The notes beneath the pieces are model-generated. The model saw only the letters and a program-made list of their open reading frames with translations. It searched no databases and was not told the origin of the DNA. DNA of 64,000 nucleotides, taken from the sequence record PP496443.1; one strand, 5' to 3'. This document shows, in pieces, positions 17,095 to 61,658 of this stretch. Made by a program: the position numbers and the translations under genes. How positions within the stretch are numbered: position 1 is the first letter of the stretch; each line of letters opens with the position of its first letter.

Positions 17095-18054
17095 TCAGTC
17101 CAAGTTGAATGCTGACCTAGCATAACCAACTGGGTCTGCGTATACGCATAGTTGGTAGATGCGGTCCGTACTGTTCTGCTCCACGATAGCTTCCTCGTAA
17201 GACGGAACCGAAACCTCTTCCACCGAAGGATCGTCCATTCCCGTATACAGATTGGTTTGGCCCTCCCCTTCTACCGCTTCCACACTCGGGACGTAATACG
17301 CCAGCCCCAGGTAGTGGTTGAACTCGTTGCTGGTCTTGGCGTCCTTGACCCAAAACTCAAGGTAGGATGTGAACGTACCCTTACTGACCTTGTACTTGTT
17401 GATCGCCCGCAAGGTGGCCAGCATGTAGTTCTGGGCCATGTCGTTGATGTCCACCTTGATCTTGGACATCGTGACTTCCTTGCGCACCTTGGAGAACAAC
17501 CAGCGGCTGTACTTCTTGGCGATCAGCTTACGCAATTCGTTGGCCAGACCATACCACATGATCACCTGACGGCGAGCTGACCAAAGATCACGGTGGCCGG
17601 TATAGCGAACGCTGGCTTCGATCTCTGACTTGCTTCGTACCAGCGTGTGGTAGTTCGCCTTGGTAGCGGAGGCTAGCTCAAGGCACACGCCGTCGTAGCC
17701 TTCCGTTCGTTCAAGGAAGGCCTCGATGATGGCGTGATACATCGTTCTTTCCAGCTGCATATCGAAGAACAGGGTCAGCTTTTCCTGTGGATCTTTAACC
17801 GACAGGAACCCGGCCATCAGGGATACAACATCACCCCGTGAGAAGGAGGATAGCTTGCGGCGCTTGTTCATCATCTGCCACGACATGGTAGTGGACACCA
17901 CCTCATCGGCGATCAGCGTTGTTTGGAAGATGACCAGTAATGCCCGGCCAATGAGATCATCAAGTAGGCCAAACATCTGTGCACTGGTCAGGGTGAGGTC
18001 GTATGGATTATTCTGCTTCATCCACGACATCACATCTTGATGGTGACCGGCCAT
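17095..18054 (-). CDS. Sigma-70-like RNA polymerase sigma factor
   Basis: Region 2 match: DINDMAQNYMLATLRAINKYKVSKGTFTSYLEFWVKDA versus the consensus DLIQEGxxGLxRAxxKFDxxxGxxFSTYAxWWI. Confidence 0.75.
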   Translation of the reverse strand: MAGHHQDVMSWMKQNNPYDLTLTSAQMFGLLDDLIGRALLVIFQTTLIADEVVSTTMSWQMMNKRRKLSSFSRGDVVSLMAGFLSVKDPQEKLTLFFDMQLERTMYHAIIEAFLERTEGYDGVCLELASATKANYHTLVRSKSEIEASVRYTGHRDLWSARRQVIMWYGLANELRKLIAKKYSRWLFSKVRKEVTMSKIKVDINDMAQNYMLATLRAINKYKVSKGTFTSYLEFWVKDAKTSNEFNHYLGLAYYVPSVEAVEGEGQTNLYTGMDDPSVEEVSVPSYEEAIVEQNSTDRIYQLCVYADPVGYARSAFNLD

Positions 18055-23772: not shown

Positions 23773-24873
23773 CTATAGGTTGCGGACTTTAATGAGGTTG
23801 CCACTGGATGCGGCGATTAACATGGTCTTGGTTAGCCCTCGCTTGCTGAAGCACAAATCGTCTTCGGCCAGCGGGCAGCTGAAATAATCATTCTTCATGA
23901 TCTCGTCGTGATCCGCCTTGCAGTGGCAGGGACGCAACTTTTCGATCTTGTCGAATGTGGTCAACAATGCTGATTTACTGCGAACTTTCAACAAGTCCCT
24001 CCAGAGCTCCCATCCCAGCTCATATTCTGCCATGAGTTTTCGCAGTTGGCGCTTCTCTTTATCTGGCAGGATATCACCCACAATAACGCGGCGATGGAAG
24101 TTGTCTCGGGTGATGTAGATCAGCATCCAGCCTTCAATGACGATGTTGTGCATCATCTCAAGCAGCACGATGTACGACTTGATCTGGGGCACGTTGGCTT
24201 TGGCCGGGAATACGCCACCTTCTTTCTGGTGCTTCATCACCTTGTAGCTAGACGTGGTCTTGTAGTCGATCACGTAGTACTTGCCGTCGAGCCAGAGCAG
24301 TCCGTCGGTGTGACCCGTGATGTTCTTGCCATATCGAACTGCCAGCTCTTCATAGCGGAAGAACTTGTGCCCACACTTGACGCACTTGCCGGGATGGGGC
24401 GAGAACTCGTGGTTGTGTTTACACTTCTTGCAGTAGTAGTCGCCGACGATGGCCCGCTTGAGGCCCTTCATAAATTTCTGGCGACTCAGCTTCTTCTTCG
24501 TGGCTGTATCAAGGACCTTGGCGTTACGGCGTGCTGAATCTCCCATAGAGAACGGGGTCAGGCTGACGGCATGCTGGAACGTCTCGTGCACCGCCGTACC
24601 GATGGACGTATAGAAGCCGCCACCGACAACTTCTTCCTCACGTTCCATAACCAGACCGCTTTCCAGCGTGGCGATGGCATGGTAGATCGGGCAGAACGGG
24701 AACGAACTAGGATGAAGATCCATCACCCGTGTTTCAGACATGTGGCGAACGTCCGTGACTTTGCACGCCTCCGCCATGATGCGTTCCATTTCTTTGAGCG
24801 CGTCGGCCATCGGACCAGATACTACCTGATGCCGACTCACTAACCCGATGTTTGCTTTTCCGAAACCTTTCAT
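23773..24873 (-). CDS. Cas4-like PD-(D/E)XK exonuclease with an inserted zinc ribbon
   Basis: HPSSFPFCP, GTAVHE, TGHTDG...IDYKT, QIKSY, C-terminal cysteines, plus a CKKC...CVKC insert. Confidence 0.8.
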   Translation of the reverse strand: MKGFGKANIGLVSRHQVVSGPMADALKEMERIMAEACKVTDVRHMSETRVMDLHPSSFPFCPIYHAIATLESGLVMEREEEVVGGGFYTSIGTAVHETFQHAVSLTPFSMGDSARRNAKVLDTATKKKLSRQKFMKGLKRAIVGDYYCKKCKHNHEFSPHPGKCVKCGHKFFRYEELAVRYGKNITGHTDGLLWLDGKYYVIDYKTTSSYKVMKHQKEGGVFPAKANVPQIKSYIVLLEMMHNIVIEGWMLIYITRDNFHRRVIVGDILPDKEKRQLRKLMAEYELGWELWRDLLKVRSKSALLTTFDKIEKLRPCHCKADHDEIMKNDYFSCPLAEDDLCFSKRGLTKTMLIAASSGNLIKVRNL

Positions 24874-38254: not shown

Positions 38255-39262
38255 TCAGGCGAGGAATCTGTGTAAGCCCGAGGAATATTTGTTCAGGTAC
38301 ATGGTCATCACCTTATTGGACGCGGTGGTGGCTCGGTTACCTGATCGGTTAAACGACATATGCAACCAAGGTCGGTTCCCGTGTTCAAAGATGAACTGGT
38401 CATAATTGATGTTGTCTTTGACCCAATTGGCACGATCCCAATATTCTTGATTGCTAATGCCGGGCCACTGTACATCGATGGCTTGTCCCGTCTCATGCTG
38501 GGACCTACCATTCTGCTGTGTACGGAAACCGGAGTTGAAGGAGAAACCTGGGTAGGCGTCCCACAACGGTTCCAGTATATGCTCGGCCAATGCCTTGAGG
38601 TTGCAAACTATCTCCTGTTCCGTCAAGCCCCGTTGAGCCTTGATGGTGTGAGGGAAAGCAGTCTTGATCGATACGTTAGCCAGCGTAAACCTTGCAGATA
38701 GACGCAGCCCGTAATCCAGCGGTAGAGTAATCATGGCGCAGTCAGTGATAGGTGTAACTCGGTCCGGCGGGGGCACCTTGTTCTCTTCCTGTGCGGGTGT
38801 GTCTATTGGCGGTGGCGGTGAAGTCTGGGGTGCCGGTGGATAACTCTGCTGCGGAGTACCGGGACTGGTCTCGTATTCATCAGCGAAAGCGTCGTAACCG
38901 GCAGTCCGAATAAGCTTGGCTGCATTCTCAGGGCTGTTCTGATCCACCGGAATAATAGTGGCAGCGATAATCTCCACCTTACCCTTATCCGATGTACCGT
39001 CACCTACCAGCACAGTAGGTGAGCCTGTCATGGGTGCGTCATTGTCTTGGAACCCGTCACCCAGTCGGGCAACTGGTAGTCCGTTGGTGAACACCGTGGC
39101 ACTCCCAACTCTTTGCGAAGTAGGTCCGGGTGGGCCAATCCAGGTATCGCTGACCCGTACAACAGGGAAGCCATTGACCATGTGATTCGGGGATCCAGAC
39201 ACTGCCACCCGTTTAGCGTTTGACAAGTCTGGGCCTTGCCGGGCCACTGGTTTCAATGCCAT
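38255..39262 (-). CDS. PAAR spike-tip protein fused to a peptidase M15A (Zn peptidoglycan peptidase) domain
   Basis: N terminus: PVAR, PVVR..D, GSATVFTNGLPVARLGD. C terminus: NSGFR...SQHETGQAID...WLHMS (M15 HxxxxAxD and WxH). Confidence 0.85.
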   Translation of the reverse strand: MALKPVARQGPDLSNAKRVAVSGSPNHMVNGFPVVRVSDTWIGPPGPTSQRVGSATVFTNGLPVARLGDGFQDNDAPMTGSPTVLVGDGTSDKGKVEIIAATIIPVDQNSPENAAKLIRTAGYDAFADEYETSPGTPQQSYPPAPQTSPPPPIDTPAQEENKVPPPDRVTPITDCAMITLPLDYGLRLSARFTLANVSIKTAFPHTIKAQRGLTEQEIVCNLKALAEHILEPLWDAYPGFSFNSGFRTQQNGRSQHETGQAIDVQWPGISNQEYWDRANWVKDNINYDQFIFEHGNRPWLHMSFNRSGNRATTASNKVMTMYLNKYSSGLHRFLA

Positions 39263-43261: not shown

Positions 43262-46200
43262 TTAGAAGGATGAATTGTTGACCATCATCACCATAATGTC
43301 ATCGATGTTCTTGGCCGCTTTGGTCGTACCATTACCAGAGTTGCTGCCCCCACCACCGGATTGAACCACTTGTGGTGCAGGTTGCTCTTTAACCGCATTG
43401 GTGGTACGGTCCTGTGTCTGAATGAGTGCTGCCGTCTGTGCAGTCTGCAACTGCGACTTGCTCTCATTGAGATTGCTGCGTGCGGAACCAACGTCCTGCA
43501 GGTTGCTGTTGGCTGCACTCAGGGACTTGAACTCACCTGTGACAAGTGGTGCCGAAGATTCTATTGGCTTGATCATCGACAGGCGTTGTGATGGTTCGGT
43601 CAGGACACCTTTGCTAACCTGGGGGTCCAGCACCACTGCCGGATCGGTAGGCTTGCTCTGGGTGATAGGAACCGGACCCGTAATGCCTTTGGTTGCCGAC
43701 ATTGGCTGATTAGCCGCAGGCGTGGACACAGTGGTGGCTGGCAGCGGAGTAATGCCTGGAATGAATGGCGTGGTAGGTGCAGCGTCGCCTTTAACCGGTA
43801 CGTCGGTAGCCGGGCCAGCCTTGCCGATAGCCAACGGAGTTACTACCTTGCCGTTGGTGTCTACCTTAGGTACAGTCATGGACGTACTGATCGCAGCATC
43901 CACTTTGTTCTTCATGTCCTTGCTGTACTTCTGGTTGTTCTCCGTACCGTTCCAGGCGTCAAGCATTTCGATGTCGGAGATCTGACCTTGGTAGCCTTCC
44001 TGACGGAACACTGCCTTGGCAATCGCCATCATCGTCGGCTGGTCGTTAGGATCCAGCTTCTGGTTTGGATCGATACCGGTTTCCTTCGAGACGGCCGTGA
44101 CATAGCCACTGGTATCGTTCTCGTTCGGCGGTGTCAGCTTGTTGACCAACTGCTTCAAGGTCATGCCTTCCGCAGACACGTGCTTGCGCGCCAGCTTGAA
44201 CCAAGCTCTTGCACCGTGCACAACGGTATCGAACTTCTCGAATCCACCTTCCTGACCGATTTCCCCTACCCACTGGTTCTTGTCGCTGGCCCGGATGTTA
44301 CCTGGGTTGAAGTTCCGGGTTGCCAGTGTGGCTTGGCCCTTGAGAGGTCCAGAACCGGAGCCCTGATACGACACACTCTGATCCAGCGTACCCGGCTGCG
44401 GCAGAACAGGGATGGCTTGACCCTTGATGTTCGGCGACGCACTGAAATCTTGGGCAGGGCTGGATACGGACTGTTCTTTGTCGAACCAGTTCATCGGGTT
44501 GATGCGGGTAGCCAGATCCTTGGCTTTCTGCACCATATCTGCAATACGGTTCGGGTTGCTGAAGAAGTCGATGGCCGCACCGATGGCAATACCCGTCGGG
44601 CCAAAGATTGCACCCTTGAGTCCACCTTCACCGAGGTAGTCCTTAGCGGTGTCCAGCATGTTCGTGCCGAGCTTGGTCACAGAGTCCAGTGTACCCGATG
44701 CTAGATCCTGTACCGACTTCCAGCCTTCCGTACCCCACGTTGTGACAGTATCCCAGCCTTTGCTTAGGCCGGTCATCATGTCATTAGTGAAACCTTCCAT
44801 ATACTTCGATGCTTTGTCCAGGCCACCCGCTACAGTGTCAGTGACGAACTTGGATGCAGGTCCCAGTACATTGGTAACCTTGTCCAGTCCCGCATAGATG
44901 TCTTTGGTGTCGATCAAGCCGAACGACAACCCCGAGGCAATCGAGGACAGTGCCGCTTGAGACTTCTGACCGAACGTGGCTTCTTGACCCGGCTTCAACC
45001 CGGCAATGTCTGCTGCGTTGTTCCAACCGTCGAACCCATCGTAGGCCGCCATCGCAGCAATACCGATAGGACCTAAGAGTTTGCTGGCGCCGGAAAGCAG
45101 CCCTCGACCTGCCAGCCGTGCTACCTTACCCCCAGCTTTGGCTAACCCAACGCCTCGACTGGCAAGCTTACCTGCACGCGTGGCTGGCCTTGGCCGGGCC
45201 GACGGGACGTGGGGCTCACCAGCAGATGGACCAGTTGGATGCGGCGTAGAAGAGTTACGAGGACGAACCGATCCGGTGGCTGTATCCAGAACAGCGTCAA
45301 TGTTGTCATCTGTTTGGTCACGACCACGACGCAGGCCAACCAGACTACCAATAGCCCCGGCACCAGCACCTACAAAAGCTGACATCTTGCCGACGCGACC
45401 GGTAGCGAAGCGGCCAACACCTTTGGCAGCACGTCCCAGCCGACTGCCACCCCGAGCAGCACCTTCCGCTGTACCCCTTGCAGCTCCTTTGCGTGCAGCA
45501 CGGCCTGTGAGGATAGCCGAACCAGCGGCACCCAGACCACCCACGATACCGTCGGACAATCCTAGAGCCGCGTCGAAGTTACCCAAGCCTAGAGCATTGA
45601 GCAAGCCAGAGATTGCGGTGGACGCTACGCCTTTACCAGCAGCAACGATGCCGGGGTTGCGAACGAAGCGATCACTCAGCTTGTTCTTTTGCAGCCCAGA
45701 CTCTACGTCGCCGTGATCCAGCAACGACTCATCGAACTTCTCGTTCAACTCTTTCAGGTTGAATACGATCTTTTCGTCAGTAGTGTCAGACTGAACTTTC
45801 TGCAAGATGTTGGCAACTTTCTTGCTGGTGTGAGCATTCAGCTTACCGTCTGCCCGAAACGCTTTCTGCATAGCCACCACTTGCGCAGCGAATTGCGGAA
45901 TGGCAGACAGCTGTTTGATCACACCTTGCATCGCATCCTTGCGTTCATTCAGGCTACCGTTCTTCAACGTCTTGATAGCACCCGCGATGTCCGCATCTAC
46001 CGACTGGCGTTGGAATGCAACCTTCTCATATCCCTTGAGCATGGTTGCAATCTGAGCGTATTCCTTCTCCGAGATGTCGCTGTTATGCGACAGGAGCTTC
46101 TCGATGTCCTTTAACTGCGGGTTCTCTTTCAGCTGGCGCGACTGGCGCAGGAAGCCAACGGTCTCCCCCGCAATGGTGCTCCGGTAGTTCTTACCCAGTC

Positions 46201-46777
46201 GGCGGTCCGTGATACGATCAGTCATCTGGCTGACGACTTTGTTGCTGTCTACGTGCGCAATCGGAGCAACCGCTTTGAGATCGATAGCTACCGCTTTGGC
46301 AGACTCGACAACGGCGTGGGCCTGATCAGAGTCAACCGACTTCCGGTTCAACACATCTTCGTACAGCTTGCGCTCGGGACCGGACCGGAACTTCTGAAGA
46401 CGCTCCAGTGCATCCATCTGGTCCTGAATGGTCTTTTGCAGGGACTCATCACCCTGCTTCTGAGCCTTCTTCATCTGCTTCATCAGTTCCAGCTGGGTCT
46501 TGCTGTAATCCAGCAGATCCGACTGGTTGCTCACCGAGTCCAGAATGGTGGTCAACTGATCATGCAAGCCTTTACCCATGAGGAAGGTGGGCACCATGGA
46601 TTTCATGGCACGCTTGAGCACGTCAACGCCTTCCGTGAAAGCACTAGAGGCCAATGCGTTTGACCGCTCGGCCATCTTGAGTTGCTTTTCACTCATCTTT
46701 TCCCGATCAATGGAACTCGGGTCGATGTTGTTGCTCTTGAGGATGTCTAAGTACGTTTCATTGATTAGGGTCGGCAT
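43262..46777 (-). CDS. Tape measure protein with a lysozyme-like domain near the C terminus
   Basis: 1171 aa, helical and Ala/Gly-rich; contains RNFNPGNIR...FDTVVHGARA...PPNENDTSGYV...EG. Confidence 0.8.
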   Translation of the reverse strand: MPTLINETYLDILKSNNIDPSSIDREKMSEKQLKMAERSNALASSAFTEGVDVLKRAMKSMVPTFLMGKGLHDQLTTILDSVSNQSDLLDYSKTQLELMKQMKKAQKQGDESLQKTIQDQMDALERLQKFRSGPERKLYEDVLNRKSVDSDQAHAVVESAKAVAIDLKAVAPIAHVDSNKVVSQMTDRITDRRLGKNYRSTIAGETVGFLRQSRQLKENPQLKDIEKLLSHNSDISEKEYAQIATMLKGYEKVAFQRQSVDADIAGAIKTLKNGSLNERKDAMQGVIKQLSAIPQFAAQVVAMQKAFRADGKLNAHTSKKVANILQKVQSDTTDEKIVFNLKELNEKFDESLLDHGDVESGLQKNKLSDRFVRNPGIVAAGKGVASTAISGLLNALGLGNFDAALGLSDGIVGGLGAAGSAILTGRAARKGAARGTAEGAARGGSRLGRAAKGVGRFATGRVGKMSAFVGAGAGAIGSLVGLRRGRDQTDDNIDAVLDTATGSVRPRNSSTPHPTGPSAGEPHVPSARPRPATRAGKLASRGVGLAKAGGKVARLAGRGLLSGASKLLGPIGIAAMAAYDGFDGWNNAADIAGLKPGQEATFGQKSQAALSSIASGLSFGLIDTKDIYAGLDKVTNVLGPASKFVTDTVAGGLDKASKYMEGFTNDMMTGLSKGWDTVTTWGTEGWKSVQDLASGTLDSVTKLGTNMLDTAKDYLGEGGLKGAIFGPTGIAIGAAIDFFSNPNRIADMVQKAKDLATRINPMNWFDKEQSVSSPAQDFSASPNIKGQAIPVLPQPGTLDQSVSYQGSGSGPLKGQATLATRNFNPGNIRASDKNQWVGEIGQEGGFEKFDTVVHGARAWFKLARKHVSAEGMTLKQLVNKLTPPNENDTSGYVTAVSKETGIDPNQKLDPNDQPTMMAIAKAVFRQEGYQGQISDIEMLDAWNGTENNQKYSKDMKNKVDAAISTSMTVPKVDTNGKVVTPLAIGKAGPATDVPVKGDAAPTTPFIPGITPLPATTVSTPAANQPMSATKGITGPVPITQSKPTDPAVVLDPQVSKGVLTEPSQRLSMIKPIESSAPLVTGEFKSLSAANSNLQDVGSARSNLNESKSQLQTAQTAALIQTQDRTTNAVKEQPAPQVVQSGGGGSNSGNGTTKAAKNIDDIMVMMVNNSSF

Positions 46778-46787
46778 GGCCTGTTAC

Positions 46788-46997
46788 CTATTTCCGCTGG
46801 ATCAAACTGGAGAGCATCTTCAACATGTTAGCGTTGCGGTCAGCCTCCTCTTTGAGACGGATCGTTAACAGGTTGTTCAGCTTCACTAGTCTGTCGTACG
46901 GCATAAATTGAATGTGGAAGGCATCAACTATCCCTTCCGCGGCCAAATCGCAAGCCATTTTTAGAAGTAGGCGTGGCTCCACGAAAGGGTGTGACAA
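46788..46997 (-). CDS. C-terminal (+1 frame) segment of the tail assembly chaperone, probably made by frameshift
   Basis: Overlaps the 3' end of 46924..47931 in the +1 frame. The tracked start is a TTG only 9-12 nt before the CCC TTT CGT site (46989-46981). Confidence 0.65.
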   Translation of the reverse strand: MSHPFVEPRLLLKMACDLAAEGIVDAFHIQFMPYDRLVKLNNLLTIRLKEEADRNANMLKMLSSLIQRK

Positions 46998-47931
46998 GCA
47001 TCGAGTCCTCCTTCACCTCGACACGAACATTTTTGATGACCCGTTCAATGAACTGCGGATAGAAGTTCTTTTGACCTTCCTCTTTCTCCGCTTCCATTTT
47101 TACCCAATCTTCGTTGAGCACTTTCTCTTTGACCGGGACGATCAAGTCCGAGATACCGTGGTAGAGCATGGTATCGATGGCCGTCAGCATCATCATCCGC
47201 TCGCCTGTGGCGTCGGCCACCAGCTTCAACATGGGCTCAAGGTCCTGATCACTGCCCAAAGCCAACCATGCGTGAGCCTGATTGATATCCTTGCGAACTT
47301 CTTCCGGGACATTGAGGTAGGCCAGATGCTGACGCAGCGTTACCGGCATGAACTCGATGCTCTGCATGCGACCACTGATCTCAGTATCGAGGATGATCGG
47401 TAGCTCTATCGTGAGTTCGTCGAATGCCAGTTCAGACGCACGCATGACGTGGTGACATTCCACCTCGTCTACCACGAAGGACAGCTGCACTTCTTCCGTG
47501 CCCATGGTGGAGAACTTGCGGTACATCGCGATGCAGATAAAGTCACCCATGGTCAGGTCAAGCGGATCAATCCCCGTGGCAGTAATGCCGTCGAGAATGT
47601 GCATGAACCGCTCAATCTCGGAGAACCGCCCTTCACTGACCGTTTCAATCTCGGCAAACGTGTAGGGACGGTAAGACACCGTGACGCCCGCCGGGTAGGG
47701 GCGGAACTGGCTCGGCAGTTCCTTCATCTGGAACCACGGCACGTCCACTTCTTCAGTGGTGAGCTTCTGAGGGGGCAGTGGCTCGGGTGCTGCTTGCATC
47801 ATGGAGGCCAAGCTTACTGCATCACCATCCACGGAGTCTTGATCAACGTCGCCCCAATCAAGGCTTTCCTTCTTAGGGTCGGGCGTATCCGCCTGCCGTT
47901 GGTGTGGGGGAATGGGGTTCTGGGTGAACAT
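46924..47931 (-). CDS. Tail/baseplate hub assembly chaperone (gp26-like)
   Basis: ELPSQFRPY...YRPYTFAEIE...LTMGDFICIAMYRKFS; immediately upstream of the tape measure gene. Confidence 0.75.
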   Translation of the reverse strand: MFTQNPIPPHQRQADTPDPKKESLDWGDVDQDSVDGDAVSLASMMQAAPEPLPPQKLTTEEVDVPWFQMKELPSQFRPYPAGVTVSYRPYTFAEIETVSEGRFSEIERFMHILDGITATGIDPLDLTMGDFICIAMYRKFSTMGTEEVQLSFVVDEVECHHVMRASELAFDELTIELPIILDTEISGRMQSIEFMPVTLRQHLAYLNVPEEVRKDINQAHAWLALGSDQDLEPMLKLVADATGERMMMLTAIDTMLYHGISDLIVPVKEKVLNEDWVKMEAEKEEGQKNFYPQFIERVIKNVRVEVKEDSMLVTPFRGATPTSKNGLRFGRGRDS

Positions 47932-47958: not shown

Positions 47959-49041
47959 TTAGCTGAAGAACTGACCGATACTCGTCTTGGCCGACTTGTA
48001 GCCACTGGCTACCTGGTTTGCACCGCTGTTGATCGCGTTGTTAGCTGACTGCGAGATTCCACTGGTGGCGCTGTCGAACTTGCTGGAGACGGCACCGATG
48101 GCACTGGTGTAAGCATTGCTGACATCGTTCTGCAGGGTGGTCAAGCCGGTAGAGATGCGGTCGATGGCACTGTTGGCCGTGCTACTCAGCCCCGCAGCAC
48201 TCTTGAGCAAGCTGGTCGCCGTTCCAGATGGATCCAGGTCGCTACGGGTTGCACCTGGCGAACCGATGACCTCAAGCTTGAGCACGTACTGGCTCAAGTC
48301 ACCTTGTGACTTGCCGGAGAACGTGAGCGTACCGGAAGGAACTACCTTGTACGGTCTAATCTCTACAGTGTCCTTTTGCCGGGACATCTTCTTGATGTAC
48401 AGCATCTTGTACGCATCACCCATGGGCACGATACGACCCCCTGACCCGCCGATGTTCTGGTTCATCCACGTGGTGAAGTAGTTGAACAGACTATTGACAT
48501 GATCGTCCAAGAAGACAATCTGGATAGACATGGCGTGCGTACCTTCCATGATGGTGATCGTGGTAGGCCCCATCTGGAAGTCACGGGTGGTCACGTGCGC
48601 AGCGTCTTCCTCGATGTCAATTACCGGGAGCCAAGACTGGAAGTACGAGGGCAGCGCATTGGCGTCGGCCAGCTTAATGTCCCAGAGCTGATCCGTGTTC
48701 CACTCCACCTGTTGCAAGTCCAGCACGTTCTGCAAGTAACCGGAGTGTGCCGGGATAGGAGGTGAAGCGTTGGCATAGTTGCCGATGCTTCCCTGAAACA
48801 GCCCGAGGGACGTCAGCCCGCTCTTGATGGCCCCCAGTGACAGGGAGTTGTCACCTGTGAGTCGATACAACTTGTCGTTGATCTTTTGTTCAACGTAGCC
48901 ACCCAGCCGACTCTGAATGGTGTTGCCAATGATGCCTGTTACCGCGCCAAGTGATCCACTCTTGCGATAGGTACTGATTGCCTCGATACCCGTAGTGAAT
49001 GCCCCCAGCGCGCTATTGGTCTTTAGACTGAAAAGGCCCAT
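47959..49041 (-). CDS. Tail tube-like/initiator protein (gp19/gp54-like)
   Basis: SIQIVFLDD...LFNYFTTWM...YKMLYIKK...YKVVP tube-fold pattern. Start reassigned to ATG 49041 (GAGGA RBS). Confidence 0.6.
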   Translation of the reverse strand: MGLFSLKTNSALGAFTTGIEAISTYRKSGSLGAVTGIIGNTIQSRLGGYVEQKINDKLYRLTGDNSLSLGAIKSGLTSLGLFQGSIGNYANASPPIPAHSGYLQNVLDLQQVEWNTDQLWDIKLADANALPSYFQSWLPVIDIEEDAAHVTTRDFQMGPTTITIMEGTHAMSIQIVFLDDHVNSLFNYFTTWMNQNIGGSGGRIVPMGDAYKMLYIKKMSRQKDTVEIRPYKVVPSGTLTFSGKSQGDLSQYVLKLEVIGSPGATRSDLDPSGTATSLLKSAAGLSSTANSAIDRISTGLTTLQNDVSNAYTSAIGAVSSKFDSATSGISQSANNAINSGANQVASGYKSAKTSIGQFFS

Positions 49042-49072
49042 ACCGATATCCTCTTGTATGTAGCGGCGGCGC

Positions 49073-49086
49073 ATACACGTAATTAG
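49073..49086 (-). promoter_or_regulatory. Candidate late promoter CTAATTA-CGT-GTAT
   Basis: Copy of the recurrent motif, about 30 nt upstream of ATG 49041. Confidence 0.5.
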
Positions 49087-49721: not shown

Positions 49722-52700
49722 TTACGCCACCTCACGCAGCTTCCACTTGGTTTCGGCCTTGACTGCTTTCGCCAGTGCCCGACCGGCAGCAGCCTCGCTG
49801 ATCTTGCCGAGGTCTGTGTTGCCGTCCTGCGTTTCGAGTACGTAGCCAGCCTTGGTCTTGACCAGTGCAATGAAGCGCGTGCCAGACTTGGTTTGGAAGC
49901 GACGGATCGTCTTGCCGGTTACTTCGGTGTTCACCTTGGCAGCAGGTGTACGCTTCTTCGTGCGCAGCGTCAGCGACTTGATCGTTTCCATGACCTCGTC
50001 GTAGTTGCCCACACTTACACCTGAACGCACGATGGCGTCCAGTTCTGCCTTGGCTTCCGCCTTGCTGTTCGACAGGATGAACCACTCGCTGTCCGAAGAC
50101 TCCCACTTGACCGTAGGAACGATAACCTTGCGACGCACCTGTACAGCCGATGGTTGCTTAGTCATGTCTACCAAGATCCAGCATTCACCTTCGTAGAACA
50201 TCACGTATGGACGCAGTTCACCTTTCGGCACCGCGCGCTTGCGGTCCAGGTGGAAGTTGCGAACGTCGGTGTCGAGTGCAGCCTCGAAGTTCAGGAGTCG
50301 GCGCTTGCCTTGTGTGAACGCGGCTAGTGCGGATTCCAGATCTTTCAAGTAGCGCGGCTGAACCTCGAAGTTCTCTTTCAGCTTGTCGATGACGCTGGAC
50401 AACGCCCGATAGGTCGGCACGATTGCATAAATGAACTTCCCGGTCTCGCGGAAGCCCAACTGCGTAGCCATCTTGTCCGTGACATCCGGATCTTCGCGAT
50501 CCAATGCCAGCTGGATCATGTTGTTCAACACACCTGGGTACACGTAGATCTCACCATCAAGATCACGGTTACGTTCCACCACGGCTTTCTTGACCGGGGC
50601 ATCCGGGATCGGCGCGGGTGCGTCTTCCGGTTCCTCGGTGTCGTCTTCCTCCGGTTCCTCTACCACTGGATCGGATTCAGGCGTCGAGTACTGGGTGGCG
50701 CGTTCCGGCATGCCCACCATCTCTGCCAGTCGCTGGCGTACGGGCACCTTGTTCGGCTTGAGGATCACGAACACCGCCAGCTTGTTAACCGAGACCGTGC
50801 CGATTTCCTTGATCTTCACCTTGAGGGTGTTTTTCCCGGAGCTGATAACCTCTCCATCCCCGTACTCGGTGTGAACCTGCAAACCTTTCATGTCGGCTTC
50901 ATCAGCCGTCAAGTCATTGTCTGCCAGCCAGTCGGATACCGGAATGATACCCAGCGCGTCTGTGAACGGCAGCTGCATGTTCGAGGTGTACGGCACCGTG
51001 ATCAGCGCGGAGCCCGGCAGGTTACCCGCTGTCGGAATCTCCTTGGCTTTTGTTGGGCCGTCGTACGTCTTGAGAAAGTCGGCGTATTCATCCCGGCGGA
51101 TCTTGGTGTACTGCCCGTAAGCATCTACGTAGCTGAACAGCGAACCCTGATCGTCTTCCGAACCGAACTTGTTGGCGTCCATGATCGAATCAAGAGTCAT
51201 GCTGACCAGCGGCAGGTTAGGCAGCTTGTCGTAACGAGCGTCCGACGCCTGGAAGCGAACCATCGTCAAGAGCTTCGACATCATCCGTGCCGTCTTGGTC
51301 ACGTCGATAGTGCCGTCGGCAATGATGCGGTCGAAGAAGATCTTGCTGCGTGCACCATACTTGTTCTTCGGGTCGGGGCGGTTGAGTCGCGACTGCCCTT
51401 GTTCGAATTCCCCCGGCGACCATACCGAGTCCGTCGAGATCAAGCGATTGACGAACTGGAAGTTGTGGCCTGTGTTCAGGGATGTCTCAACCCCGATCAA
51501 GCCGATGATACTGTCATCCTTCTCGAACTTCGGCAACAGCTTGTCCTTGTCTGCGGCGTAGTACAGGATAACCTTCTTCTGGAGGTCAGGTGGAAGCGAT
51601 GCGTGCAATGCCTGAGCCGATGCCACATACGCACAGAAGATCAGCACCTTGCCGTTCGTTTTGTCGCGGCTGTGTTCATCGAACAACCGGATGATCTCTT
51701 TGGCTTTCGGGCTGATACGATCCGAGCCCTGCAATACCTTGTCACCAACCTTATCGTGCGCCGGTGCCGAGATGAACATTTCCAGTCGCTGCAAGTACGG
51801 ACGCAGCAGCATCTCGATGTTGGCGACATTTTCCTCACCTTCATCCGACGCTTTCAGTTTCTTCATCAGATCCGCATCGGCCATGATGGCTTCGACGGCA
51901 TCATTCAGAATGTCCTGATACACGGCCATCTGTTTCTTCGACAGCGACACCTTGTGGAACGTCTCAGTGGCCGCTGGCAACAATGCTGCCCACTCCCGAC
52001 GGGACACACGCACATAGTCTGCTGCGCTGTTCATCTGGGTACGCACGTCACGCTCGGCGTTGTTCTTCCAGCTGAGCGGTTTCCCTTGGAACGTCTCGGC
52101 AGCGTACCGCTCGATGAAGTCCTTCTTGGAACCGAACGTCGATGGCGACATGATCGAGAACTGACCTGCCGCATCCGTCAGTTGCCCGTGCACGTAGGTA
52201 CCTGTGGTCTGACGGAGGTTATCCGACAGGGTGGCCTGCGCCCGTACCGAGGAAGATCGTGCACTGTCCAAGTTGGCCAGATACTGCGATTCGTCCATGG
52301 ACAAGTAGATCCACTCGAAGCGGCGCATCAGCTCTGAGTTGTTCGACAGGATCAGATCGGTGTTGCCGTACTGAATGCTGTACTGCCCGTTCTTGGGGAA
52401 GTCGAAGTCACACAGAACCAACGTGTTGACCGGCGCGTTGTAGATCAAGTTGTACATGTAGTCGTGACCGTAACGGTTGATCACGTCTGTGGACAGCACA
52501 ATCACGTTGACCGAACCTTGGGTCAAGTAAGTGATGTCCTCGATGTAGTTCTTGATCAGGTTCTTCGGGCACATCATCAGCGGACGCTTCTGCTGCTGGC
52601 CTTTCAGATCGCCACGCTCGTAATACTGACCGAGGGTGTACAGGCAGTCCAACACGTTCATCAGCGTCTTACCGCCGCCCGCATCCACGTGGTCAACCTT

Positions 52701-55472
52701 CTTGTCCGGCTGGCGCTGACCCGACACAATGGGTCGGATCTGGTGAGCCAGTGCGGAGAAGTCGGAACGGATGAACGGAACCGGTGACACTTCCGTCTCG
52801 TCGTTGACCTTGACCGGGTTCAGCGAATACTTCGCCTGCTTGGCCGCTACTTGGGACTTCAGTTCATCCTTGGCTGACTGGTCTGCATACTTCGCCATGG
52901 CAAAGATCGAAGCAACACCCTGCATACGACTGGTGACCGACAACACGTTACTGGTGCCGATGGCCTTCGGATCGCTGAGGATCTTGAACAACGCGTCCGT
53001 ACCGTCTTGCATGGCTTCGACCGCAATACGGCCAATGCCTCGGAGCATAGGGATATCGGAATCAGCGGTCAGGTGGCTGATGCGCAAATCCTTGTATACC
53101 TCTTCGAACGGGTAATCGTTCGTCGCGATGTCCCGATCAACCAGACGCTTCGCCAACGATTGAATCGATGCCAGAACTTCGTGGATCGTTGGGTTGCCGC
53201 CCGCAGGGAACAGGAACTCTTGAACGCTTTCCCCTAGAACGTCGGTTACCGCCGGAGGAACCTCGAAGTCGCTCTCATTGAAATAGTCAGTAACCTTCTT
53301 GCCCTTGTAGTTCAGCCACGCCGTCAGCGAGTTACGCAGATAGCCGAACGACAGTGCCTTGGGGTTTACTTTCTCTTCCATCGACTTCTGGTATTCCATG
53401 ACGCTGGCCGGGGAATAAGCCGAGACATCATACGTGACCAGTCCACCAGACGAAGTGGTGTAGCTGAGGATGTCCGCACCCCAGTCAGTGAAGATGTAGT
53501 AGGAGCGTAGACGGCCTTGAGCGAATTGCTTGATAACCAGATTATCCGTCTTGGCGTTGTCCGGGATCATGTACTGGTTCTGGATGCTGATCTCAGGAGT
53601 TTCCTGCCCCTCAACCTCTTTGAACTTCGCTTTGACGCCACCCATGCCCACGTCTTGGCGGGTGTATTCGTTGTCTGCGAAGGCACCGCGATACGAATCC
53701 TCGATGGCCTTCTCGTACTGCGCAACGATCTGTGGATCAGCGGTGGGCACGAACACCAGGTCAGCATCGGGACCAACCATCATCTGGTCACCGTTCAAAC
53801 GCGAACGCTGCGGCATTGCGCGGGTATCTGCGATTGCCTTGCCCACGGCACGATAGAACGATGCATCTGTCTTGGCGAACGAGTACTGCGCGTCAGTCAT
53901 CTGATACGCCCACTCAGCCACGTCAACCGGGGCGGGTGGAGAGTGCTGAGTCACGAACGCAGCCACGTCTTCCGAGATAGTGAACTCGGAGAAAGCAACA
54001 ACCTCGGCGTCACCTGCCTCACCGATGTTAGACAGACGACACATGAACGAGCGGGACTTCAGACGCGCCATCGCATCCTTGTAGTCCGCCTTGTCTACCA
54101 CGTCAGTCTGCAGTGACGGTGGCACTGGCATCTTGTTGGACGTCAACCAGCCATTGAGGCGGGTCATCGGCGTGTTTTCCAGAAGCCAGTTGATGAAGTC
54201 AACCGGTGCCTTTGGCATGGTTGGTTCTTCCGGCGCGCCCGCAGTCAGGTTGCCGTCCAGCCCCCGGTACGCATGGTTCCAGTTCTTGAGCAGGCGCTCC
54301 AGAATCTTGCCGCCGACTTCCTGCCGCACTTTTTCAAAGGACGGTTTGTCTTCCTTCGAATAGGCGAAGATGATCTTGGCGACCATGCTCTCGTTGACAT
54401 CAGACCAGTTGTTGTCGTAGTCCAGATCTTCGATGCGATACTTGCGCAGCACATCTAGCTGTTGCTGGTTGGTGAAGCTGCAATACATCACGTTCTCACC
54501 AAGGGTACGACGCACGTACGGCATCTTACCGGCGGTGCCCGTGCCATTGAGGAAGCTTACCTCATTGGTGCTTTGTACGCCTGCATCACCACGGGGTGGT
54601 GATACTTCGATCAGCAGGTTGAGCCCACCAACCAGTTCCTTCAACCCATCTTTCTCGAAGGCGAAGTCGTTCTCGCCCATCAAGATTTCCTTGTCGATGA
54701 ACGGACTGTTCAACGCAGATTTGAAGTTGACAGGAATGCGCAACCGCAGCTGGCGAGTCATGTCGTCCAACGCCAGCGGATCTTCCATGAACTTGCCCAG
54801 TGCAGTCTTGAGCAGTTCCAGTTGGCTGGTCATCAGTGCGTCGACCTTGGTCTGCATCCGGCTACGCTCGTCCAGCGGCAGATACACCATGGCATTTTGC
54901 AGGATCTTAACACGCGGGACAACGTAGGCCATGTCGATTCTGCTTTCGACGCAAATGCCGATTGCGTCAAGCATCTCAGGGACCGAGAATCCGGGAATGC
55001 GGGACTCTTTGACGTTGCTGCCCATGGCCGGGATAGCCAGCGTGAAGTCACCTCGACCATTCGCCGTCACCTTGGTATACGGCGCCAGCGTACGCATGCC
55101 TTCCGACATCTCGTCCCACTTATCAGCCTTGATCGTAGCACTGTTGGCACGGAAGGAGGCCGGAGGGTTAACGCTGTAGTCCTTGAACTCCAGGCTTTCT
55201 TTCATGTCCTGCAACAGACGCTTGCCATTGTCGAACAACTTCGGCAGCTCGGTCTCGAACAAGTTCGGTACCTTGGACAGTTCGTCCATCAGCGATGCGC
55301 CGCCCACGGACAGAACCGCGTACGCCATGCTGTGCAGGTCACCAAGCTTGTAGTCGTACGTTGCTTCGTAGTCTTCAGGCTCTTCAACCGGCTCGGCCAA
55401 TGGTGCTGCCAGCGAGCGTAAGCGTTCCGTCTCTTCCGGGGCGCGACTACGCCGTTTTGATTTCTTGCTCAT
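49722..55472 (-). CDS. Giant SNF2-family (SF2) helicase/translocase
   Basis: VDAGGGKT (I), MMCPKNL (Ia), SMDESQ (II), TTGT (III), KVLIFC (IV), LNTGHNFQ (V), EQGQSRLNR (VI). Start at ATG 55472 (AAGGTG RBS). Confidence 0.88.
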   Translation of the reverse strand: MSKKSKRRSRAPEETERLRSLAAPLAEPVEEPEDYEATYDYKLGDLHSMAYAVLSVGGASLMDELSKVPNLFETELPKLFDNGKRLLQDMKESLEFKDYSVNPPASFRANSATIKADKWDEMSEGMRTLAPYTKVTANGRGDFTLAIPAMGSNVKESRIPGFSVPEMLDAIGICVESRIDMAYVVPRVKILQNAMVYLPLDERSRMQTKVDALMTSQLELLKTALGKFMEDPLALDDMTRQLRLRIPVNFKSALNSPFIDKEILMGENDFAFEKDGLKELVGGLNLLIEVSPPRGDAGVQSTNEVSFLNGTGTAGKMPYVRRTLGENVMYCSFTNQQQLDVLRKYRIEDLDYDNNWSDVNESMVAKIIFAYSKEDKPSFEKVRQEVGGKILERLLKNWNHAYRGLDGNLTAGAPEEPTMPKAPVDFINWLLENTPMTRLNGWLTSNKMPVPPSLQTDVVDKADYKDAMARLKSRSFMCRLSNIGEAGDAEVVAFSEFTISEDVAAFVTQHSPPAPVDVAEWAYQMTDAQYSFAKTDASFYRAVGKAIADTRAMPQRSRLNGDQMMVGPDADLVFVPTADPQIVAQYEKAIEDSYRGAFADNEYTRQDVGMGGVKAKFKEVEGQETPEISIQNQYMIPDNAKTDNLVIKQFAQGRLRSYYIFTDWGADILSYTTSSGGLVTYDVSAYSPASVMEYQKSMEEKVNPKALSFGYLRNSLTAWLNYKGKKVTDYFNESDFEVPPAVTDVLGESVQEFLFPAGGNPTIHEVLASIQSLAKRLVDRDIATNDYPFEEVYKDLRISHLTADSDIPMLRGIGRIAVEAMQDGTDALFKILSDPKAIGTSNVLSVTSRMQGVASIFAMAKYADQSAKDELKSQVAAKQAKYSLNPVKVNDETEVSPVPFIRSDFSALAHQIRPIVSGQRQPDKKVDHVDAGGGKTLMNVLDCLYTLGQYYERGDLKGQQQKRPLMMCPKNLIKNYIEDITYLTQGSVNVIVLSTDVINRYGHDYMYNLIYNAPVNTLVLCDFDFPKNGQYSIQYGNTDLILSNNSELMRRFEWIYLSMDESQYLANLDSARSSSVRAQATLSDNLRQTTGTYVHGQLTDAAGQFSIMSPSTFGSKKDFIERYAAETFQGKPLSWKNNAERDVRTQMNSAADYVRVSRREWAALLPAATETFHKVSLSKKQMAVYQDILNDAVEAIMADADLMKKLKASDEGEENVANIEMLLRPYLQRLEMFISAPAHDKVGDKVLQGSDRISPKAKEIIRLFDEHSRDKTNGKVLIFCAYVASAQALHASLPPDLQKKVILYYAADKDKLLPKFEKDDSIIGLIGVETSLNTGHNFQFVNRLISTDSVWSPGEFEQGQSRLNRPDPKNKYGARSKIFFDRIIADGTIDVTKTARMMSKLLTMVRFQASDARYDKLPNLPLVSMTLDSIMDANKFGSEDDQGSLFSYVDAYGQYTKIRRDEYADFLKTYDGPTKAKEIPTAGNLPGSALITVPYTSNMQLPFTDALGIIPVSDWLADNDLTADEADMKGLQVHTEYGDGEVISSGKNTLKVKIKEIGTVSVNKLAVFVILKPNKVPVRQRLAEMVGMPERATQYSTPESDPVVEEPEEDDTEEPEDAPAPIPDAPVKKAVVERNRDLDGEIYVYPGVLNNMIQLALDREDPDVTDKMATQLGFRETGKFIYAIVPTYRALSSVIDKLKENFEVQPRYLKDLESALAAFTQGKRRLLNFEAALDTDVRNFHLDRKRAVPKGELRPYVMFYEGECWILVDMTKQPSAVQVRRKVIVPTVKWESSDSEWFILSNSKAEAKAELDAIVRSGVSVGNYDEVMETIKSLTLRTKKRTPAAKVNTEVTGKTIRRFQTKSGTRFIALVKTKAGYVLETQDGNTDLGKISEAAAGRALAKAVKAETKWKLREVA

Positions 55473-55482
55473 GGATTGCACC

Positions 55483-59678: not shown

Positions 59679-61658
59679 TCAATTGATTCCGTACTTTTTG
59701 ATAAAAGCGGAATAAGGGGTTTTATCGCCTTCGAAGGAATTGACCTTCGAGTTACTTGCCCCGTCTTTGTAGATCAGGGTCGTGGTAAGGTTCGCGCTGA
59801 ACGGCCCAATGACGCCGCCGTTCTTCACGATGAACTCGTTTACCTTGCTGTCCCTTACACCGGTCAAGTAGAAGCGCTGACCTTTGAACAACTGGGACGC
59901 CACCCGAACCTTCTTCGGTGGCTTCGGCAACACGTACGTCAATCCAGCCTTGGTATACGCCATGAAGGCCGTCATGAAGGCCGGAAGTGCTGCAATGAAC
60001 TGATCCGCTCGCTTAGGTCCGAATCCATCCAGTTCTGCCAGCTTTTCCCGCAATGCCTCACGGGAAGCTTTGGTCCGCTGCAAGCCCGTAGGATCGCCCA
60101 GGCTCAACGCTGCCGGTTTCAGCAGTGTGAGTCCCATCCCGTGGCCGAACGCCCCGCTGGCGACCATTAGGTCGGCTAGGTCAACGTCCACCACACAGTC
60201 GGCCAGCGCCGCAACGAACTTCTTAGCCGTCGGGGCACCGAAACCAGCTTGCTCGACCAGCTCTTTGGCGAACCGGATCGGGGTTTTGGTCACTTTACGA
60301 ATTAGGCCCTGTACGCCGCCAACGTCCATGTACTCTAGCATAGCGTCAAACGTGGCTTCCTTGAACCCTTCCAGGCCTAGCGTCACGAAGAAGAACGTCA
60401 TGGACTTCGTAAGCTGTTGCTCTCCGCTACCAATGGTGCGGATGTTAACCCCGTTCTCATCCCAGTCGTACGACCCCGACTTGGGCAGATCGGCTTTACG
60501 TGCGGGGGTGACCACACCTGTGATGTAGGGGATCACGTCACCAGACCGGACTAGGGTGATGACGGCGCCTTTCCCTATCTTGTTGTCCTTGATGAACTTG
60601 GCGTTATGCCCTGTGGCCCACGTAACTTTGACACCCGCCAGTCGTACGGGAGTTATCTTGACGCGGGGCTTGAGCGTCCCGTATCTTGATTCGTTCCACT
60701 GGACGTCCTCAACAGTTGCTGTTGCCACCTCAGACATCAGTGCGGACTTGAAGGCGAACTGATAGTCCGGGTTACCTGAACCCGAGGGGCCACGACCCAC
60801 CTTGGTCGTGGACACGATCACGCCGTCCATCTCGTATATCGACTTCTTGCGGCGGTCCAACAGGTAATCGGTCAGCTCATTGACATCCAGTCGCAGTACC
60901 TTCTTGACCGTAGGGATCAGGAAGCCCATTGCCTTGAGTTTGGCGAACTGCTTGTCCACGTCCATGGCAGGCTTGACGATCTGGTACATGACCACTTTGA
61001 TCTTCTTGCCCTTGAACACCGGCGGAATGATCTTGCTGTTCGCGGCACCGGCCACCAGATTGCGGGGGTTGGCGAAGTCGTCCTTGAACTGCTCGAAGGT
61101 GGCCACCGGCATGATCAGCTCACCCCGACCTTGCCAGCCATTGGGGATTGGGGGCAAGTCCAGATAGGGGGCCACGTGGCTGATGTCCAAGCCTTGGTTC
61201 CCGTCGCCACGGGTGTACAACTCCGGCTTCTTGGGATTGGTTGTTCCCTTGATGCCGATGGAGATGCCGTCCAGCTTGTCCGACAGCACGTAGGGGCCTG
61301 GGTTAGCTACCGCCCAGCGCAGGATGGACTTCTCGTCCAGATACTTGTTCATGCTGCCCATGCCGAACGGTAGTGACGTCTTGTTCAGCTCGTTGGACTT
61401 CGAACCCACCTGATACAGCTTCTTGTCCACGGTGAGGATGACGGTCTCGAACTTGTCGAACTCTGCGTCGCTGACAACAGGCACACCGGCGTAGTATGCG
61501 TCTTTCAGCAGTAGGTAGGCATCGGCCAGCTGCTTCTTGGGCACGGACTTCGCCGCTTCCACCTGCATGGCTTTGTTAGCCATGTGGATGATACCGAACA
61601 CGAAGTCTTTCAGTTCTTGGCGACCTTTTTTGGTGCCTATGGTGAACTTGGTCGCCAT
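59679..61658 (-). CDS. ligA: NAD+-dependent DNA ligase
   Basis: DKLDG (KxDG), TRGDG, RGE, NPRN, DGVIV, FAFK, RSGDVIP, HhH region and C-terminal BRCT; zinc-finger cysteines absent. Confidence 0.93.
   Translation of the reverse strand: MATKFTIGTKKGRQELKDFVFGIIHMANKAMQVEAAKSVPKKQLADAYLLLKDAYYAGVPVVSDAEFDKFETVILTVDKKLYQVGSKSNELNKTSLPFGMGSMNKYLDEKSILRWAVANPGPYVLSDKLDGISIGIKGTTNPKKPELYTRGDGNQGLDISHVAPYLDLPPIPNGWQGRGELIMPVATFEQFKDDFANPRNLVAGAANSKIIPPVFKGKKIKVVMYQIVKPAMDVDKQFAKLKAMGFLIPTVKKVLRLDVNELTDYLLDRRKKSIYEMDGVIVSTTKVGRGPSGSGNPDYQFAFKSALMSEVATATVEDVQWNESRYGTLKPRVKITPVRLAGVKVTWATGHNAKFIKDNKIGKGAVITLVRSGDVIPYITGVVTPARKADLPKSGSYDWDENGVNIRTIGSGEQQLTKSMTFFFVTLGLEGFKEATFDAMLEYMDVGGVQGLIRKVTKTPIRFAKELVEQAGFGAPTAKKFVAALADCVVDVDLADLMVASGAFGHGMGLTLLKPAALSLGDPTGLQRTKASREALREKLAELDGFGPKRADQFIAALPAFMTAFMAYTKAGLTYVLPKPPKKVRVASQLFKGQRFYLTGVRDSKVNEFIVKNGGVIGPFSANLTTTLIYKDGASNSKVNSFEGDKTPYSAFIKKYGIN

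Follow-up and report, generated by a model that had tools for sequence, protein, structure and literature searches.

A gene of 335 codons in a 64,000-nucleotide stretch of sequence record PP496443.1 (hereafter, the window) very probably makes two tail assembly chaperones by a programmed +1 ribosomal frameshift at CCC-UUU-C, a reading to which we give a probability of about 0.88. Most ribosomes would stop after 335 amino acids (aa), and a minority would slip forward by one base at CCC-UUU-C, producing a 380-aa form that carries an extra helical domain. By analogy with gpG and gpGT of phage lambda, coating of the tape measure protein may fall to the short form and recruitment of the tail tube protein to the long one. 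The genes and elements concerned are as follows:

47959..49074, minus strand: upstream gene, 371 aa, orthologue of the gene preceding the chaperone in relatives
46924..47931, minus strand: probable tail assembly chaperone gene, short form of 335 aa; an open reading frame (ORF) for a T4 gp26/gp51-like protein, likely the lambda gpG counterpart
46981..46989, minus strand: predicted +1 shift site CCC UUU CGU (Pro315-Phe316-Arg317), from sequence and codon conservation
46788..46985, minus strand: +1 frame entered by the shift (65 codons, counting the re-paired Phe); encodes a helix-loop-helix domain at the C-terminus that is likely the counterpart of gpT / gp51-C
43262..46777, minus strand: gene for a likely tape measure protein of 1171 aa, which carries an endolysin-like domain at about residues 813-961

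The shift site and the +1 frame

An earlier note on this DNA had placed CCC TTT CGT at codons 315-317 of the chaperone gene, and these codons were read directly at 46989-46981 in the ORF running from 47931 to 46924 on the minus strand. The family consensus at the shift site is CCN UUU YGY. In the +1 frame, an ORF extends between 47012 and a stop at 46788 and reads ...SHPFVEPRLLLKMACDLAAEG...IQRK, and the sequence agrees with the earlier observation that this ORF stops 10 nt before the likely tape measure ATG (46777). If TTTC is decoded in a single step, the product has 380 aa and F316 is the sole residue changed; the tryptic junction peptide predicted for the +1 fusion is EDSMLVTPFVEPR.

The site appears to be more than a product of chance because TTT is rare among the Phe codons of the window (81 vs 570 TTC), because CCC TTT occurs in frame only once in the 18,554 codons of its 49 long ORFs, and because the motif is kept in distant relatives. 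At 13.4 per 1000, CGU is no rare codon in this window, and thus no hungry codon is evident. Within the 64-kb window, no tRNA genes were found.

As for the mechanism, the tRNA-Phe in the P-site would re-pair from UUU to UUC. One tRNA-Pro reads both CCC and CCU. When the preceding codon is CCC, as in 46 of the 60 loci compared below, the tRNA-Pro could also re-pair, to CCU, and both tRNAs would then move together.

Genomic setting and identity of the proteins

The 335-aa protein is 100% identical in the Pseudomonas phages KoPa-5 and Voja-6 and has 98% identity to its counterparts in Illi-2, Aura, and SKa-4, all five phages having genomes of ~200 kb each. The last three are assigned to cluster G3, jumbo myoviruses of P. 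putida, in the passages of PMC7616413 that deal with them, and the size of the relatives together with this placement upholds the earlier description of the phage as a jumbo myovirus. The word 'frameshift' is absent from the passages on G3 phages in that article.

On the minus strand, the 371-aa gene is followed by the 335-aa gene, the small +1 ORF, the 1171-aa gene, and then genes with baseplate, hub/spike, and PAAR matches. A phmmer comparison paired the 371-aa gene with the gene just before the chaperone in each of the seven relatives tested (E 1e-8 to 9e-50). Where a tail tube gene is annotated, the orthologue of the 371-aa gene sits between tail tube and chaperone, and in Rhizobium and Acinetobacter phages the sheath and tube genes lie just 5' of this orthologue. 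The 1171-aa protein, whose gene precedes the baseplate genes, matches the tape measure family PHROG 2276 over part of its length (residues 660-951, E 2.5e-18) and PHROG 873 (E 4e-33). In 62 of 66 loci, the start of a long ORF was found close to where the +1 ORF ends. In Vibrio phage GR11A, a 167-aa gene separates the +1 ORF from the long gene (L005:2991-3494), and in Thermus phage phiLo the overlap is short and is not directly followed by a long gene.

Several other genes on the minus strand of the window deserve mention. A PAAR domain, a Pro-rich linker, and a peptidase M15-like / endolysin-like domain are fused in one protein (38255-39262), and a 1919-aa SNF2-type helicase adjoins the tail gene block (49722-55481). 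Further PHROG matches are to a Cas-associated family (phrog_1706; 23776-24873), a lipase-like family (6798-9191), a sigma factor (17098-18054), and an NAD-dependent DNA ligase (59682-61658).

The 335-aa window protein itself has no Pfam match, and five of 13 aligned relatives match PF12322 (T4_baseplate, best E 5.3e-8) and PHROG 150. The profile of the chaperone family aligned with that of the T4 gp51 family at a probability of 87. The AlphaFold model of the 335-aa protein (pLDDT 91.9) matched T4-like hub assembly proteins in a Foldseek search of viral models (E about 1e-5 to 1e-4). Searches of the PDB by sequence or Foldseek gave no match for the protein. In a structural scan of 48,161 PDB chains, the best match was 2OB9, which is the tail assembly chaperone of HK97 (77 aligned, Z 5.4, rmsd 4.4), a Z of ~5 being in the range that the tool calls common. 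The next matches, again with modest Z, were 3KLU (Z 5.3) and 3FGX (Z 4.4), that is YqbN and Rbstp2171, which we take to be tail chaperones. The Pfam and PHROG matches of the relatives and the fold searches agree with the chaperone identity presumed earlier, and the 335-codon gene is likely a tail assembly chaperone of the T4 gp26/gp51-like type.

The +1 domain was modelled as a helix, a loop, and a long helix (pLDDT 93.5). It had no significant match to the T4 gp51 family, its fold search gave no match under E 0.001, and the 66 +1 peptides compared with Pfam and PHROG produced nothing consistent. Its alignment to the -1 domains found at T4-like gp26 loci was weak (E 0.0024, probability 12), and its nearest named clusters among ESM neighbours, which serve as leads only, included P2 GpE (0.90) and Gp51_C (0.89).

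Most relatives (L008-L011, L013, and many metagenomic ones) have two CxxC pairs resembling a zinc ribbon, whereas the Pseudomonas and Vibrio chaperones are without these pairs and have a beta-hairpin insertion before the site instead. Two relatives probably carry erroneous annotations, namely 'DNA methylase' in Thermus phiLo (L013:1974-2720) and 'peptidase domain-containing protein' in Rhizobium TM39 (L008:1968-2753).

Codon conservation at the shift site

A tblastn search found relatives in 22 cultured phages of Pseudomonas, Vibrio, Rhizobium, Escherichia, Acinetobacter, and Thermus. Twelve of the 13 cultured relatives that were fetched have CC[CG] TTT CGT near the gene end, and in these 12 the +1 frame around the site runs 25-61 codons beyond the stop; Va2 has TTT CCC TAT instead. 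Peptide patterns taken from a single protein retrieved no relatives among viral contigs. Because selection on the motif was to be avoided, viral and metagenome contigs were scanned with degenerate N-terminal patterns, and loci were kept by an HMM without the C-terminal region. The 183 loci scanned included 163 with HMM matches, of which 145 were complete and 67 remained under 70% identity; those dropped were 20 of 183 without a chaperone match, 14 cut before the stop, 4 with <220 nt downstream, and 78 that were redundant at 70% identity. Median pairwise identity among the 67 loci is 31.6%. The rows share ancestry, and nominal p-values therefore overstate their independence. Seven of the 67 loci lack Phe at the aligned column and were handled apart, so that the main counts refer to n=60.

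The aligned column holds Phe in 60 of 67 loci, and its codon is TTT in 60/60 (background 61%), with TTT also in 39/39 of the loci under 42% identity. The base after TTT is C in 55 loci and U in five, corresponding to UUU-CGN in 55/60 and UUU-UGY in 5/60. Where Arg follows Phe, its codon is CGN in 55/55 (background 50%). The Pro codon before Phe is CCN in all 60 loci, with a strong preference for CCC (background 17%). Codons for other conserved Phe, Pro, Arg, and Tyr residues, taken as controls within these genes, are free to vary, and silent sites elsewhere in the chaperone genes are scrambled. Conservation of the motif at synonymous positions in orthologues, which the earlier note had proposed as a check, is thus borne out for TTT (60/60), CGN (55/55), and CCC (46/60) against variable controls. 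The preference for CGU in particular is confounded with Val in the +1 frame. The invariant UUU followed by a pyrimidine suggests that tRNA-Phe can re-pair one base forward. At the protein level, PF[RC] occurs in the last 45 aa of 127 of 150 protein representatives and gives three matches elsewhere in 35,148 aa.

Among the seven loci without Phe at the column, three (L012, L081, L115) have TTT CCC TAY and two (L111, L168) have TTT TTT CGT, and in these five TTT-C lies two codons before the aligned column. In L175, CCC TTT AAG is found eight codons earlier, ~26 codons before the chaperone stop, and the +1 frame opens two codons before it; this site possibly uses a Pro CCC-U slip instead of a Phe slip. 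Each of these six variant sites retains a run on which re-pairing is possible. Only L025 (1/67) has neither the site nor the +1 ORF. With CCG, CCA, or CCT present in 14 of 60 loci, a pure Pro CCC-U slip was discarded as the mechanism for the family in general. The preference for CCC, taken together with the swapped and doubled variants, suggests a tandem move of two tRNAs on XXX-YYY-Z runs.

Reading frames around the site

The +1 frame is stop-free from codon -2 to codon 42 in 60/60 loci and extends 18-60 codons past the 0-frame stop; in 27 of the 60, it is closed no more than four codons upstream of the site. The -1 frame gets past the 0-frame stop in only four of 60 loci, and the shift is accordingly treated as a variant of the lambda G/GT type. 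At the site, the conserved bases shift from 0-frame to +1-frame codon positions, and the conserved tail of the short form, 'IRFG', is therefore likely the shadow of 'FxLA' in the +1 frame, where the conserved family pattern is FVxxxxLLxxxFxLA...MDYxEV. No longer, fused protein carrying the +1 domain was found by search, a result that is weak evidence. Taken together, the conservation of codons and frame favours the earlier interpretation of the site as a +1 variant of the conserved chaperone frameshift.

Start codons and the upstream Shine-Dalgarno-like motif

The small +1 ORF could instead be a separate gene with its own start (TTG 46997 or ATG 46958), Pro-Phe-Arg being kept for protein reasons, which we consider unlikely. 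Three sequences in this phage bear on it:

47007..47013, minus strand: internal Shine-Dalgarno (SD)-like AAGGAGG, 20 nt 5' of the UUU codon, duplex energy -11.7 kcal/mol
46995..46997, minus strand: TTG in the +1 frame, 9 nt after AAGGAGG; rival start in this phage, not conserved
46956..46958, minus strand: ATG of the small ORF in the KoPa-5 GenBank annotation (KoPa5_00131), +1.9 kcal/mol, no SD-like pairing

The earlier note had reported no strong ribosome binding site and only a TTG and an internal ATG as possible starts. Both statements proved wrong, because AAGGAGG (47013-47007) lies 9 nt before the TTG with a duplex energy of -11.7 kcal/mol, and the +1 ORF has further candidate starts, namely one GTG, another TTG, and two additional ATGs. 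With AAGGAGG before the TTG, the small ORF of this phage could be initiated independently there, possibly in addition to the shift. An in-frame ATG (Met311, 47001-46999 on the minus strand), which is not conserved, also lies 5 nt behind AAGGAGG; a ribosome initiating at Met311 could make a peptide of 25 aa or, after shifting, the C-terminal domain on its own.

Across the family, 14 of 60 loci, this phage included, have an SD-backed start in the +1 frame, as a separate gene would lead one to expect, but no start is conserved in the +1 ORF, and 13 of 60 loci are devoid of ATG, GTG, and TTG as far as codon 6, which encodes the first conserved hydrophobic residue. SD-like sequences are enriched upstream of the site, which also suits a separate gene; of the 48 SD-bearing loci, however, only six place an open +1 start at a distance suited to initiation, and ten place a 0-frame start there. 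The GTG right after the site was rejected as a start, for it is present in 25 of 60 loci and never with an SD stronger than -3.5 kcal/mol. The small ORF is annotated as its own CDS in several records, yet conservation reaches upstream of the annotated ATG, and ATG 46958 falls within the conserved part of the +1 domain. A separate gene also leaves the invariant TTT and the preferred CCC unexplained where the +1 frame is closed just upstream.

The SD-like motif itself is a property of the family. Pairing with the anti-SD sequence is at its maximum 14-24 nt upstream of UUU. In an analysis window picked after this peak was seen, the mean best pairing was -9.0 kcal/mol vs -6.3 +/- 0.27 in synonymous shuffles (0/300). 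Two windows farther upstream had no excess pairing, and the scan of the 60 loci found none within 10 nt of the site. GGAGG is present in 30 of 60 loci vs 9.1 +/- 2.3 expected from synonymous shuffles (maximum 16 in 1000), in 21 of the 39 loci under 42% identity vs 7.1 expected, and in 18 of 1547 gene-body windows; it occupies all three phases, under differing amino acids. Its spacing from UUU is variable (11-29 nt, mostly 14-25 nt). In PMC5009743, the SD is placed 3 nt upstream in the +1 shift of prfB and 9-14 nt upstream at -1 sites. The spacing found here is mostly beyond both, and the motif may act as a pause, a stimulator, or, in some lineages, a true start signal. Under the programmed +1 shift, the motif would likely modulate slippage, perhaps by slowing the ribosome, and this is the weakest step of the proposed mechanism. 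A 3' structure as stimulator was not found (mean z -0.2 to -0.3).

Only tentatively, with the odds somewhat against the full statement, do we extend the +1 shift to the claim that large myoviruses of a widespread clade share a bacterial +1 signal absent from the papers searched, in which two tRNAs slip forward in tandem on XXX-YYY-Z (CCC UUU C, UUU CCC U, UUU UUU C), the A-site holds a sense codon, and SD pairing 14-25 nt upstream drives the slip.

Other routes to the fusion protein

A -2 slip, with the upstream SD pairing pulling the ribosome back as at -1 sites, would enter the same frame as a +1 shift. The SD spacing of 11-29 nt is indeed nearer to that of -1 sites than to the 3 nt of the +1 site, and phage Mu uses -2 in the same type of gene. 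A -2 slip would nevertheless bring no re-pairing, with tRNA-Phe landing on CCU; no conservation is seen at the two bases preceding the Pro codon, and the sole invariant, UUU followed by a pyrimidine, fits forward re-pairing. We regard this route as very improbable. Least probable of all is transcriptional slippage, in which one base lost from a share of the messages would yield the same long protein, given that the runs are merely 3 + 3 bases and that the motif is bound to the 0 frame at every aligned site.

Comparison with known frameshifting systems

According to Atkins et al. (2016, PMC5009743) and PMC3498833, G/GT frameshifts are mostly -1, with Mu at -2. Lambda gpG/gpGT represents a conserved tail-chaperone frameshift (Levin 1993; Xu, Hendrix, Duda 2004, as cited in PMC5009743) with an output of about 30:1. 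The +1 shift predicted here resembles lambda gpG/gpGT in that the chaperone gene lies directly before the likely tape measure gene, the shift site is conserved near the 3' end, and the overlapping second ORF is poor in starts and has no conserved one, although this phage has the SD-backed TTG. The fold may also be chaperone-like, the HK97 chaperone being the top PDB match at a modest Z of 5.4. Unlike in lambda, the shift would be +1 and not -1, an X XXY YYZ heptamer is absent, the search for a 3' structure gave none, and the chaperone is of the larger gp26/gp51 type.

A close precedent is in haloarchaeal myoviruses of the HF1 group, for which the relevant part of PMC7230728 proposes a +1 shift at TTT-CGC between two chaperone ORFs before the tape measure gene and already likens it to PA-X and amalgaviruses. 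For HSTV-2, a +1 shift is listed as very likely in PMC5009743, in its portion on tail chaperones. The finding is thus not wholly new, since a +1 shift at TTT-CGC had been proposed for chaperones of haloarchaeal myoviruses. The HF1 group comprises six close archaeal genomes, whereas the loci described here come from bacterial phages of many hosts and differ by the CCC preference, the Cys-codon and swapped-order variants, and the upstream SD-like motif.

T4-like chaperones are described as using poly-T -1 signals (Vladimirov 2022, as cited in a passage of PMC12846349). The present family resembles T4 gp26/gp51 in protein likeness and in having a short helical domain after a gp26-like gene. In each of the six cultured T4-like gp26 loci that were fetched, the short gp51-like domain lies in the -1 frame across U-rich ends, e.g. 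GAT TTT TTC, while in T4 itself genes 26 and 51 are separate and divergent. These six loci (L184-L189) are from Rhizobium IG49, S-RIM8, phiMAM1, MDA2066, SJ2, and Va3, and the gp51-like -1 ORF is unannotated in the three Ackermannviridae records.

The influenza PA-X site is UCC_UUU_CGU, with a shift of about 1%, in the part of Firth et al. (2012, PMC3498833) describing it. The phage sites are like PA-X in having UUU followed by C, a preference for CGN in the A-site, and no evident 3' stimulator. They differ in being read by a bacterial ribosome, in having CCN in the E-site (60/60, CCC in 46) and not UCC, in that CCC can itself re-pair, and in the SD-like motif upstream. The likeness to PA-X is likely a case of convergence. 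With prfB, the phage sites share an internal SD-like sequence 5' of the shift site; the A-site codon is here a sense codon and not a stop, and the spacing is mostly 14-25 nt and variable.

Significance

In the literature searched, with subscription papers and supplements outside the search, there was no report on this clade, its CCC UUU CGU site, or its upstream motif. One practical consequence is a corrected annotation, as present annotations either omit the second ORF or start it at an internal ATG. The family also offers a natural bacterial +1 site in dozens of divergent copies, some of them in cultured phages of harmless hosts (P. putida, Thermus, and Rhizobium), which makes the mechanism of UUU-CGN slippage directly testable in bacteria. 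The SD-like motif, lying so far upstream, could widen the known rules for rRNA-mRNA stimulators. If the +1 shift is true, one chaperone superfamily would reach the same pair of short and long proteins by -1 slips, by +1 slips, or by two genes, and such a variety of routes to the same pair would point to selection on the ratio of the two forms and not on the route.
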